Source: an uncultured Verrucomicrobiae bacterium
Lineage (GTDB): Bacteria; Verrucomicrobiota; Verrucomicrobiia; Limisphaerales; UBA11358
Direction of reading: 5' to 3'
Length of the DNA stretch: 64,000 nt
Assembly: GCA_963802965.1 (NCBI GenBank)
Contig: CAWDKS010000003.1
Span: forward strand, 274,813-338,812
Part shown: positions 45,701-48,478 of the stretch, piece by piece
Layout: every line of letters starts with the position of its first letter
How positions within the stretch are numbered: position 1 is the first letter of the stretch
Position numbers and translations under genes: made by a program
Notes under the pieces: generated by a model
The model's input: the letters and a program-made list of their open reading frames with translations, nothing else
The model's database searches: none
Told to the model about the DNA's origin: nothing

Positions 45701-47011
45701 CTATTGTTTTTTCACCGGCACGCGTTCCAGGAAACGATCCAGCTCCTGCTCCGGAATTGAATTGGTGATGAGCGGCGCTTGGCCGGTTTCATTCGCGGTC
45801 AACGCGGCGAGCTGCGACGGCATCTGGACAATGTGCGGCGTGATGAACATCAGCAACTCGTCCTTCTGGTTCGAGTGGTTGCTGAACTTGAAAAGGTTGC
45901 CGAGTACCGGAATGTCGCCCAGCAGCGGGATTTTGCTCTCGCTTGTGGACTTGTCATTGGAAATGAGGCCGCCGATGACGACGGTCTGGCCGTCGGGCGT
46001 CACGACCACGGTGTTGGCGGAACGTTTGTTGAGATTCGGCGCAAACACGGCGGATGAAATCAAGCTGCCGCCTTGAATCACCTGGCCGGGCGTCGAGGTG
46101 TCAATGGACGTGATTTGCGGCTGGAGAATCATTTGCACCAGATTGTTCGCCCCGATGAACGGCGTGACGTCCAGTTGGATGCCGACGTTCTGATAGGTCC
46201 CGTTGATTTCCGGAACGGTGGCGGTGGTGCCGCCGACACTGGTTAAAGTGACACTGCTGGGCAGATAGATGCTTTGGCCGACGACAATCTCCGCCATCTG
46301 GCCGTCGCGCGCGAGAATGGACGGGCGCGACAGCACTTGCGCCTTGCCGGCGGTGGCGATGGCCTGGAGCGTCGCCGTGAAATCGTTGCCCATGATTTGA
46401 TATATCCCGCCATTCCCGGCCGCTCCCGTCAGGGTCTGGGGCAAATTGAAGTTGTTGTTCAAAGTGTAACTCTGGTTGACCGGGGTATAGCCCGAGGGAC
46501 CAATCGAGCCGGGAGTAGTGGCAGGAGTGGTAGAAGGATAATACATGTAATTGGTCAAATAGCCGGTGACCTGCGAAAAGTTTTTGCTGAAACCGGTGTA
46601 ATTGCCCTGAACCCCGAGGTCGAGCGCCTTGTTGTCATTCACTTCGAGGAAGACGGCCTTGATGAGCACCTGCGGTTCGGGCGCGTCGAGGCTGGCGAGC
46701 ACCAGGCGGATTTGCTCGCTGGTCTGCTTGTCGGCGATGACCATGATGTTGTGCGTCACCGGGTCCACGGAAATGATCGCGCTGCCCACCGTGCCGTTGT
46801 TGTTGTATTGGCCGCTGCCGCTGGTCGTGGCGCCGCGGTTTGCGTTGTTAAACGCGCCGCCGCCGCCGAACCCGCCAAAGCCGCCAAACCCGCCGAAGCC
46901 ACCACCACCACCGCCGCCGCCGGGACGGAATTGCGCATGGAGATTAAACGCGGCGCACAACAGAAAAATCAGAACGCCACCGAGATATTTTTGGAAACGA
47001 TTTGTTTTCAT
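45701..47011 (-). CDS. secretin C-domain protein (GspD/PilQ core) with its own signal peptide and Gly-rich N-terminus
   Basis: MKTNRFQKYLGGVLIFLLCAAFNLHAQ followed by FRPGGGGGGGGFGGFGGFGG. The secretin core is SRPSILARDGQMAEIVVGQ...IPLLGDIPVLGNLFKFS...ELLMFITPHIV. Confidence 0.85.
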   Translation of the reverse strand: MKTNRFQKYLGGVLIFLLCAAFNLHAQFRPGGGGGGGGFGGFGGFGGFGGGGAFNNANRGATTSGSGQYNNNGTVGSAIISVDPVTHNIMVIADKQTSEQIRLVLASLDAPEPQVLIKAVFLEVNDNKALDLGVQGNYTGFSKNFSQVTGYLTNYMYYPSTTPATTPGSIGPSGYTPVNQSYTLNNNFNLPQTLTGAAGNGGIYQIMGNDFTATLQAIATAGKAQVLSRPSILARDGQMAEIVVGQSIYLPSSVTLTSVGGTTATVPEINGTYQNVGIQLDVTPFIGANNLVQMILQPQITSIDTSTPGQVIQGGSLISSAVFAPNLNKRSANTVVVTPDGQTVVIGGLISNDKSTSESKIPLLGDIPVLGNLFKFSNHSNQKDELLMFITPHIVQMPSQLAALTANETGQAPLITNSIPEQELDRFLERVPVKKQ

Positions 47012-47044
47012 AATTTGCCCTTTCATTAAAAAATTCATCACGTC

Positions 47045-48478
47045 CTAATAAAGCCGTCCACCGGTGCCGCCACCGCCGCCGGAACCAGTTCCACCAATTC
47101 CGCTGGTGGTGGTGGTCGTGCCCATGGTGGTCGTGCTGTTTTGAGCGCGTTGCTGGAGCGCGCTGTTTTGCGATGACGAACTCGTGCCACTGCGCGACGT
47201 GCTGCTGCTCTGGAACATGTTTTGCAGCACCTGCACCGCCTGCTGGGGATCGCCGTTTTTCATCTGGAAAACATAAACGCCCTGGTCGCGATCCGAAGGC
47301 ACGTCCAGGTCGTTCATCATGCCCGCAATCTGGTCCATCAAATCCTTCGGCGCGGTCACGATGACCGCCTGGATGCGCGAATCGGCCACCGCCGTGACCT
47401 GCGTCGCCTTTTTGATGCGGTCGTTCTGGCTGTTGTTGCCGCCGCCGGCGTTCGCCGCCATCATGCGGGCAAAGAATCCGCCGCCGCCGCCACCGCCGCC
47501 GCCGCCGCCGCGAAACTGGATGGGCGACTGCGTGTTGTTGCCCGAAGTGCTGCTCGGGAAAACGCTGGTCAACTCGCTGGCCACATCCGCCGGGCTGGCG
47601 TATTTCAGGCGGAACACGCGGATTTCCGTCTCCGCCTCGGCGCTGTTGTCCACCGACTGGATGATTTCGGCCAGATGCCGGATGTTGGACTGCGTGTCGG
47701 TGACCACAATCGAGTTGCCGGCCTCGTTGGCGACAATCGTCGCCTGCGACGAAACGAACAACGACAAATCCGAGACCAGTTGCCGCGCCTCCACAAACCG
47801 GATGGGAATGATCCACGTCGCAATCTCGTCGTTGTCGGGAATGGAGTTGGGATTGTTGCCGGTCTTGACCGGAATGTTGCGCGTCTTCGCCTCGCTTTTG
47901 TCCACAATCGTCAGCGTCCGCCCGTTGCGGATGGCGGCGTAATTATTCCGGTTCAACTCGGTGTTGAGCAAATTCACCGCCTCATCCTGGCTCACGGGAT
48001 GCGTGCTGACGATGGTCACATTGCCGTTGACGTGCGTGTCCAGCACGATGATGAAACCCGCCGCGTCGCTCAAATAATTCAGGACCATCTCCAGCGGCGC
48101 GTTGTGGAAATTCAAACGCAACTCGTTTGAATTATTCGTGCCGATGGCTTGCGCGGGCGGCGTGAAGGCCGTCGGCACGGCTTCCGGCGCATTCCCCTTC
48201 GGCAAAATGACCGTGGACTCGACGGGCTGGTTTCCCGCCGGCGCGGCTTCGGCCGGCTGCGCGGCCTGGCCCTGGGTCGCGTCCGGCGGCGGCGCGCCCG
48301 CATCGGGCGGGTTGGTGTTGCTCGTGTCCGCCCCGCCGGCCGGCGACACGGACTGGTCCGGTGTGGCGGCGGCGCCGTTCTGGTCCGCCGTTCCACCGGT
48401 CGTCGGTTGCGCGGCCGCCGAGAGCAGCAGTCCTGAAACGCAAACCGTTGTGAGGATGATTGGGATTGAGGTTTTCAT
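47045..48478 (-). CDS. secretin N-domain protein (GspD N0/N1-type domains) lacking the secretin core
   Basis: MKTSIPIILTTVCVSGLLLSAAAQ signal peptide. Contains LRLNFHNAPLEMVLNYLSDAAGFIIV, IPIRFVEARQLVSDL and IRVFRLKYASPADVA. It ends in a Gly-rich ...GGGGGTGGRLY-stop. Confidence 0.8.
   Translation of the reverse strand: MKTSIPIILTTVCVSGLLLSAAAQPTTGGTADQNGAAATPDQSVSPAGGADTSNTNPPDAGAPPPDATQGQAAQPAEAAPAGNQPVESTVILPKGNAPEAVPTAFTPPAQAIGTNNSNELRLNFHNAPLEMVLNYLSDAAGFIIVLDTHVNGNVTIVSTHPVSQDEAVNLLNTELNRNNYAAIRNGRTLTIVDKSEAKTRNIPVKTGNNPNSIPDNDEIATWIIPIRFVEARQLVSDLSLFVSSQATIVANEAGNSIVVTDTQSNIRHLAEIIQSVDNSAEAETEIRVFRLKYASPADVASELTSVFPSSTSGNNTQSPIQFRGGGGGGGGGGGFFARMMAANAGGGNNSQNDRIKKATQVTAVADSRIQAVIVTAPKDLMDQIAGMMNDLDVPSDRDQGVYVFQMKNGDPQQAVQVLQNMFQSSSTSRSGTSSSSQNSALQQRAQNSTTTMGTTTTTSGIGGTGSGGGGGTGGRLY

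Follow-up and report, generated by a model that had tools for sequence, protein, structure and literature searches.

In a 64,000-nucleotide (nt) stretch of contig CAWDKS010000003.1 from an uncultured Verrucomicrobiae bacterium (hereafter the window), the secretin GspD of a type II secretion system (T2SS) is encoded by two adjacent genes. The first encodes a protein with a putative signal peptide and the periplasmic domains N0, N1 and N2 (protein 1, GspD-N), and the second a protein with a second putative signal peptide, a GGF tract and the secretin core (protein 2, GspD-C; Table 1). Type II and type III secretion, type IV pili and the export of filamentous phages all use a secretin as their outer-membrane gate, and secretins are regarded as homo-oligomers built from a single chain. 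In the present case, the arrangement as two genes is conserved among relatives, the boundary between them lies within the N3 domain, single-gene relatives carry an unsplit loop at that point, and the split forms fall in one clade. Sequence comparison indicates that the arrangement is old and is conserved in Verrucomicrobiota and some related uncultured lineages. The best explanation, which we hold with moderate confidence, is an ancient fission of a single GspD gene, with N3 now rebuilt from both chains.

Two adjacent genes conserved as two

Protein 1 begins with MKTSIPIILTTVCVSGLLLSAAAQ and ends in ...SGIGGTGSGGGGGTGGRLY (...GGTGGRLY), followed by TAG. After the spacer GACGTGATGAATTTTTTAATGAAAGGGCAAATT, protein 2 opens with MKTNRFQKYLGGVLIFLLCAAFNLHAQ and continues with FRPGGGGGGGGFGGFGGFGGFGGGG, a G8-(FGG)n tract. 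The sequence and the Pfam matches confirm the layout proposed in an earlier sequence-only reading of this DNA, namely an N-domain protein and a secretin core as two open reading frames (ORFs) separated by a 33-nt spacer with a purine-rich stretch. In protein 1, a Pro/Ala/Gly-rich linker of about 90 residues lies between the signal-peptide-like start and N0, which matches PF21305 over residues 122-186 (47.7 bits, cutoff 27); two further stretches match Secretin_N (87.3 bits in Pfam). In protein 2, the Secretin family PF00263 matches residues 218-396 with 161.7 bits, giving the C-terminal secretin domain of a GspD. The putative signal peptide of protein 2 consists of MKTNRFQK, YLGGVLIFLLCAAFNL and HAQ, which on inspection and in a hydropathy scan read as a basic n-region, a hydrophobic h-region and a small-x-small motif. 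A lipoprotein reading of the conserved Cys in this signal peptide was rejected, because the preceding residues, in F-L-L-C, fit no lipobox.

A scan of species-representative genomes yielded 46 loci from metagenome-assembled genomes, mostly labelled Verrucomicrobiia, Limisphaerales or subdivision 3. Six further split loci (L047-L050, L052 and L053) were added, and usable split pairs number 45 in total. In all 45 split loci with enough upstream sequence, a homologue of protein 1 ends in a stop codon and is followed by a spacer and then by a homologue of protein 2. The spacers measure 27-116 nt, with a mode of 33 nt (18 of the 45 loci). The two genes share a frame in 24 loci and are offset by +1 in 11 and by +2 in 10. 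The stop codon is TAA in 37 cases, TGA in five and TAG in four, counts that take in the unsplit locus L051. The start of protein 2 is basic and hydrophobic in every one of the 45 split loci (12-residue Kyte-Doolittle maximum 1.87-3.42), and this signal peptide character is kept in relatives down to 35-46% identity. One carrier of the split is a complete chromosome of 6.0 Mb (OW818685.1 / GCA_942493245.1).

Protein clusters give the same picture. Each of the best 120 matches to protein 2 is 405-472 residues long, the best 120 matches to protein 1 measure 377-514 residues and contain no Secretin domain, and each of the best 120 matches to a profile of the distant short forms measures 366-480 residues. 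Where named, the distant short forms come from Verrucomicrobia/-ota, 'Candidatus Omnitrophota' and 'Candidatus Sumerlaeota' genomes.

An artefact or decay product, whether a sequencing or assembly stop, a pseudogene, or one chain made by stop-codon read-through, would be suggested by the window itself, in which both ORFs share one frame with a lone TAG between them. Homopolymeric G/C runs are also error-prone, and frameshifts occur in four of the loci (L005, L038, L040 and L045). Against this, 45 independent loci are split, the stop is mostly TAA, the signal peptide after it is conserved, both halves are strongly conserved, and a public record (P0273) that is 100% identical to protein 1 is likewise called at 477 residues. 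Because the frames differ in 21 of the 45 loci, neither read-through nor a sequencing stop can explain those loci, and the probability that the split is an artefact is very close to nil. The sequence-only reading had argued from the second signal peptide that the split is functional; this argument is upheld, since the relatives are not all fused and every usable related locus has the two-gene layout. These observations indicate a genuine, conserved and functional two-gene arrangement.

The four loci with frameshifts come from long-read metagenome-assembled genomes; the shifts lie in the genes for protein 1 or protein 2, in Gly-rich (G/C homopolymer) tracts, and are probably assembly errors rather than decay. 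The spacer is conserved through L004-L044: in many of these loci it translates in frame as N(M/V)NNF(L/S)MKRQ(I/T)-MKTN and contains one or two additional in-frame ATG codons. In some genomes protein 2 may actually begin 5-10 codons further upstream, or the spacer may carry a conserved translational-coupling signal.

The size of the N-terminal partner varies greatly, reaching 894 residues in OW818685.1 (L052, 7238-9922) and 634 residues in L048 (5426-7330), and the fused homologue P0218 has tandem additional copies of an N2-like domain. These sequences suggest that evolution can change how many periplasmic rings there are in this clade.

The gene boundary within N3

Together, the two genes are shown by profile and pairwise alignments to be collinear with one GspD. 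Protein 1 matches positions 1-292 of the GspD profile TIGR02517 (187.4 bits) and protein 2 positions 279-600 (224.2 bits). Neither chain reaches the equivalog cutoff of 351 bits, and the pair alone spans the profile. The spliced sequence aligns through the junction with Escherichia coli GspD (5wq7) and Pseudomonas aeruginosa XcpQ (5wln), and, over its whole length, with 14 single-gene homologues (31-37% identity).

The three Secretin_N-type domains of GspD (N1 to N3) are present only across the pair, N3 appearing only when the two sequences are joined. Searched as a whole protein against Pfam, protein 2 has a partial Secretin_N match below threshold at its start (residues 63-114, profile 25-69). 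As separate fragments, the tail of protein 1 covers profile positions 2-26 (16.2 bits) and the head of protein 2 positions 31-69 (18.2 bits); spliced together they cover positions 2-69 with 36.4 bits, above the Pfam threshold of 28.2. The alignments thus place the gene boundary inside N3, separating beta1-alpha1 from beta2-beta3-alpha2, and not between domains; the sequence-only reading had recognised neither this nor the shared frame of the two ORFs in the window. The flexible N2-N3 linker has been described as the natural hinge of secretins (PMC5646246); by the same alignments, the cut is not located there.

Measured against 40 relatives, the two halves show the conservation of ordinary folded domains (Table 1). 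The beta1-alpha1 motif is also found at the end of the partner proteins in L047-L050, at 35-37% identity. Its retention in the most distant split relatives argues that this first part of N3 (N3a) is not a useless remnant.

Structure models made with AlphaFold2 (AF2) agree with this division. The full spliced chain was modelled with a mean predicted local distance difference test score (pLDDT) of 59.7 and about 280 disordered residues. N1, N2 and N3 each take a beta-alpha-beta-beta-alpha arrangement in the model, the loops are disordered, and the best structural matches are PulD and GspD, global template modelling scores (TM-scores) being meaningless for this model. A compact construct joining residues 393-426 of protein 1 to residues 63-436 of protein 2, with an alignment of 61 rows, gave a mean pLDDT of 79.6 and a predicted TM-score (pTM) of 0.66. 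In this model, the N3 half from protein 1 comprises strand E7-13 and helix H19-31 (pLDDT about 90), and the half from protein 2 comprises E51-55, E60-66 and H67-80 (pLDDT about 92). Foldseek matches the compact model to GspD, PulD and XcpQ over about 410-430 columns (E-values of 1e-21 to 1e-22, TM-score 0.51-0.60). A stretch of about 80 residues superposes at 3.3 Å on crystal structures of the XcpQ N domains; as the construct contains no other N-type domain, this stretch is presumably the spliced N3. The C-terminal helical tail of protein 2 may be equivalent to the S domain. The joined model shows that the halves are compatible with one predicted domain; it does not imply that they bind in trans.

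A different view is that the two proteins belong to one machine in which N3 is not rebuilt. Protein 1 would then form a periplasmic ring of its own under the channel, held by ring stacking and by GspC and inner-membrane partners, and beta1-alpha1 would be put to another use. In known secretins the connection between N0-N2 and the N3/C module is flexible, and this module can be regarded as a body of its own (PMC5646246). In the rhizobial type III secretion system (T3SS), RhcC1 has been suggested to serve as a distinct linker piece (PMC3459982), and a GspC-like protein is encoded directly upstream of protein 1. The cut does not fall at the natural hinge, however, and the three-element N3 remnant in protein 2 would expose a hydrophobic face. 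N3a is also conserved like a complete domain, even at 35-37% identity, and the joined halves model confidently as one domain. A separate ring is therefore conceivable but doubtful.

Glycine-rich ends, origin of the split and assembly

Added together, the protein 1 tail and the head of mature protein 2 amount to 106 residues, of which 34% are Gly. In single-gene relatives, a Gly/Ser-rich N3 loop of 41-147 residues (15-49% Gly) lies exactly at the cut point, and a second loop of 43-244 residues lies in N2. Because unsplit relatives carry the uncut loop at the same point of N3, the Gly-rich ends are best read as the two inherited halves of the ancestral N3 loop and not as a device that arose with the split.

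The sequence-only reading had suggested that the two pieces may be held together non-covalently through the Gly-rich segments; association of Gly/Phe-rich segments would be one way. Both ends are indeed Gly-rich, and the columns of GGFGGFGG and QYNNNG reach a conservation of 0.8-0.9 among close relatives, a high value for a linker and an unusual one for low-complexity sequence. This proposal is not supported, because Gly/Ser-rich loops of this kind occur uncut in N3 of the unsplit relatives and in N2 of protein 1, places at which there is nothing to join. Moreover, the tracts of more distant split forms (for example P0131, P0140, P0143, P0147 and P0150) are rich in Ser, Thr and Asn and poor in Gly and Phe, the models show the tracts as disordered, and a Gly-rich first operon gene also accompanies an unsplit secretin. 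Joining through the Gly-rich ends is thus very unlikely, and the N3 domain itself is the better candidate for a link between the proteins.

The distribution of forms points to a single origin. Among representatives clustered at 50% identity, short forms with a signal peptide extend down to about 38% identity, and fused proteins of 700-1100 residues appear only beyond. In a neighbour-joining tree of N3b (the second part of N3) plus the core (87 sequences), all 33 true short forms and the window sequence make up one clade, sister to the fused forms. Six short entries within the fused clade (P0182, P0191, P0203, P0238, P0259 and P0261) were considered as independent fissions and rejected as probably truncated gene calls: P0259 alone among them has a hydrophobic N-terminus, and Val is the first residue of P0182, P0259 and P0261.

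Some giant proteins of 3,252-4,054 residues (P0213, P0230, P0249, P0267 and P0270) and others of 1,494-1,967 residues (P0220, P0239, P0246 and P0264) carry a terminal secretin. The secretin domain makes up their last 300 or so residues, is 37-41% identical to protein 2, and is unusual in being fused behind thousands of residues. Five of these proteins (P0213, P0230, P0239, P0264 and P0270) cluster in the neighbour-joining tree.

Under the fission reading, the gene break would have fallen in the long disordered Gly/Ser-rich loop between beta1-alpha1 and beta2-beta3-alpha2 of N3, and the downstream half would later have gained its own Sec signal peptide. Both proteins would now cross the inner membrane separately by Sec. 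Protein 2, consisting of half of N3, the secretin core and the C-terminal helices, would form the outer-membrane channel, and protein 1, consisting of N0-N1-N2 and a beta1-alpha1 'hook', would dock by inserting the hook into the incomplete N3 of protein 2. Such fragment complementation would yield a two-chain protomer equivalent to one GspD subunit, with the Gly-rich ends as the loose ends of the cut loop and not as glue. According to published work, N3 is structurally part of the C domain and lends stability to the secretin prepore (PMC5646246), so channel assembly may depend on the N-terminal piece; a neutral fission tolerated by the long loop is an equally simple reading. Taken jointly, Sec export of both chains, channel formation by protein 2 and donation of beta1-alpha1 by protein 1 seem fairly probable.

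The loop at residues 288-303 of PulD is unresolved, and 'N3 constriction sites' lie within the channel (PMC6882859). In an adaptive fission, an N3 'seal' that needs the hook would keep unregulated pores without N domains in check, and the freed Gly/Phe/Ser-rich ends would serve as a plug or filter similar to Phe-Gly (FG) nucleoporins. If so, about 30 flexible ends per 15-mer, together with 15 N2 loops, might fill the periplasmic vestibule as an entropic plug or a substrate filter. That close relatives conserve GGFGGFGG and QYNNNG hints at a role beyond that of a linker. We consider such an adaptive fission unlikely.

Several points weigh against the fission and its proposed outcome. Binding between the two proteins and the rebuilding of N3 in trans are predicted indirectly. 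The AF2 models joined both pieces as one chain, and their alignment, made up of fused homologues and rows covering protein 2 only, leans towards an intact N3; the predicted contact between the N3 halves is read solely from the strand assignment and the high model confidence. Both signal peptides were judged by sequence inspection or hydropathy and not by a dedicated predictor. The neighbour-joining tree is crude and carries no support values, and the phylum labels are bin labels of metagenome-assembled genomes that may be unreliable. A minor read-through product may also be made in this genome, its two ORFs being in frame across a single TAG.

Operon context and comparison with known secretins

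The two secretin genes are encoded with other gsp genes, as expected of GspD (Table 1). Pfam identifies gspE to gspK, the GspI match of 20.2 bits lying below its 25-bit cutoff. The NCBIfam matches that suggest GspM-like, GspL-like and GspC-like proteins are likewise below their cutoffs (36.3 against 60, 16.6 against 65 and 18.2 against 150 bits, respectively). A homologue of the GspC-like gene was found by tblastn in most of the related loci fetched, among them the distant split loci L046, L048-L050 and L053, in which it directly precedes the protein 1 gene. The sequence-only reading was correct in that the first gene of the operon has Gly-rich tracts similar to those of the secretin proteins. 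The product of this gene has no Pfam or NCBIfam match, and its helical C-terminal part contains LTVKQ, which we take to be an LTXXQ-like motif as in periplasmic proteins of the Spy/CpxP type. A homologue with 34% identity heads the unsplit operon in L051.

Split loci at 35-46% identity share the order GspC-like gene, gene 1, gene 2 and HisKA kinase. In the four context-checked split loci that extend far enough, the kinase is followed by a sigma-54-type response regulator in every case; in the window, a gene for an extracytoplasmic function (ECF) sigma factor stands at this position.

Table 1. Features of the split secretin locus and its surroundings in the window. Conservation is the proportion of 40 relatives that have the same residue as the window, given as a mean; aa, amino acid residues.
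Feature	Window position	Strand	Conservation	Details
CHASE2-domain Ser/Thr protein kinase	32516-34522	-		668 aa
FecR + TPR + TonB-barrel-like protein	39656-43279	-		1,207 aa; beyond the ECF sigma factor
ECF sigma factor	43326-43991	+		at the response-regulator position
HisKA/HATPase sensor kinase	44080-45651	-		after the secretin genes; same position in 6/6 context-checked split loci (including L047-L049, L052, L053)
Protein 2 (GspD-C) gene	45701-47011	-		436 aa
C-terminal helical tail and stop codon	45701-45811	-		protein 2 aa 401-436; helices H370-399 in the compact model
Secretin core	45812-46681	-	0.78	protein 2 aa 111-400; PF00263; TIGR02517 279-600; Foldseek to GspD, PulD, XcpQ
N3b (strand-strand-helix)	46682-46795	-	0.73	protein 2 aa 73-110, at its start; Secretin_N profile 31-69; AF2 E51-55, E60-66, H67-80
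GGF / low-complexity head	46796-46930	-		mature protein 2 aa 28-72; putative second half of the N3 loop
Putative signal peptide of protein 2	46931-47011	-		aa 1-27; MKTNRFQKYLGGVLIFLLCAAFNLHAQ
Intergenic spacer	47012-47044	-		33 nt; GACGTGATGAATTTTTTAATGAAAGGGCAAATT; AAAGGG Shine-Dalgarno-like stretch; in frame in the window
Stop codon of protein 1	47045-47047	-		TAG
Protein 1 (GspD-N) gene	47045-48478	-		477 aa
Ser/Thr/Gly low-complexity tail	47048-47212	-		protein 1 aa 423-477; aligns with the N3 loop of fused homologues; AF2 disordered
N3a (first strand and helix of N3)	47213-47284	-	0.76	protein 1 aa 399-422, at its end; VYVFQMKNGDPQQAVQVLQNMF; Secretin_N profile 2-26
N2	47303-47632	-	0.73-0.76	protein 1 aa 283-392; best Secretin_N stretch, residues 287-396 against profile 2-68
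Uncut Gly-rich loop in N2	47405-47557	-		protein 1 aa 308-358; ...FRGGGGGGGGGGGFFARMM...; G11-FF; AF2 disordered
N1	47636-47824	-	0.78	protein 1 aa 219-281; Secretin_N match; AF2 beta-alpha-beta-beta-alpha, E105-H167 of the fusion model
N0	47888-48115	-	0.71	protein 1 aa 122-197; PF21305 residues 122-186, 47.7 bits; AF2 E9-H83, pLDDT about 80
N-terminal linker of protein 1			0.34	
Putative signal peptide of protein 1	48407-48478	-		aa 1-24; MKTSIPIILTTVCVSGLLLSAAAQ; basic start, hydrophobic core, AxA-like end; by inspection
GspC-like small exported protein	48513-49070	-		directly upstream of protein 1; NF041515 GspC_delta E 0.0016, below cutoff
Remaining T2SS operon	49067-58614	-		Gly-rich first gene, gspE, F, G, H, I, J, K, L-like, M-like (Pfam, NCBIfam)
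Gly-rich first operon gene	58060-58614	-		exported 184-aa protein; 17.9% Gly; G8 and GFGGG runs; two Gly-rich tracts
tRNA-Asn (GTT)	63369-63443	-		sole RNA gene in the window (ARAGORN; Rfam gathering thresholds)

Since neither half reaches the threshold of the GspD family, the public records found by the searches name these proteins only generically, as 'general secretion pathway protein D', 'hypothetical protein' or 'secretin N-terminal domain-containing protein'. Software that looks for a single full-length secretin could miscount T2SSs in Verrucomicrobiota and allied phyla. A large natural clade with a two-chain subunit amounts to a natural split-protein experiment on the coupling of the N domains to the gate. 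The split bears on whether N3 controls prepore assembly, and shows how long disordered loops predispose genes to fission. Literature searches for a split T2SS secretin, whose coverage is incomplete, found none; the only split secretin that they returned was the rhizobial T3SS case.

The sequence-only reading had held that the N domains and the secretin core are one polypeptide in characterised T2SS and type IV pilus systems. This is true of GspD, PulD and XcpQ, but as a premise for all secretins it needs qualifying: two-gene secretins are already known from T3SSs, namely RhcC1 (NolW) and RhcC2 of rhizobia and HrcIIC1/C2 of the T3SS-2 of Pseudomonas syringae (PMC3574062). As in the window, RhcC1/RhcC2 separates a protein with the N-terminal domains from a pore-forming protein (PMC3574062, PMC3459982). 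According to Abby and Rocha (2012), RhcC1 is the remnant of a T3SS-type secretin and RhcC2 a separately acquired Tad-type secretin with a BON and a secretin domain, and the two rhizobial genes are not adjacent (PMC3459982). RhcC1/RhcC2 is thus a partial gene replacement, whereas the split described here is a fission into adjacent, collinear halves of GspD, with the cut inside a domain. Protein 2 has no match to a BON domain, its top scores being to the GspD profile (224 bits) and to GspD structures, and the operon is of the T2SS type and not a type III secretion cluster of the Rhc kind.

The Tad secretin RcpA/CpaC and pIV of filamentous phages resemble protein 2 in length (about 430 residues) and in having few periplasmic domains, and RcpA (8odn) and pIV (7ofh) are detectable homologues of it. 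Both are complete stand-alone proteins, whereas protein 2 starts with an incomplete N3 whose missing N-terminal part is always encoded immediately upstream.

The unsplit sister clade (for example P0170, 826 residues; locus L051) is 31-37% identical over the spliced sequence and shares the same gspEFGHIJKLM-x-D operon, the Gly-rich first gene and the positions of the N2 and N3 loops. It differs in that the gene is single, with one signal peptide and no break in the N3 loop. L051 also has no HisKA kinase downstream, whereas the window and each of the six split loci checked for context have one.

The single-chain T2SS secretins GspD/PulD/XcpQ (TIGR02517; 5wq7, 6hcg, 5wln) give the best matches in both sequence (E-value 1.6e-48) and structure. 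They share the N0-N1-N2-N3-secretin order, the C-terminal helical tail and an operon with gspE-M and a GspC-like gene. A gated outer-membrane channel of about 15 subunits that exports folded proteins is a trait of GspD and may also be formed by the split secretin; the models obtained here are of monomers. The window differs in having two genes, two signal peptides, a cut in N3 and far longer Gly/Ser-rich loops in N2 and N3. The split secretin is surprising in detail and widespread, yet a variation on a well-understood machine.

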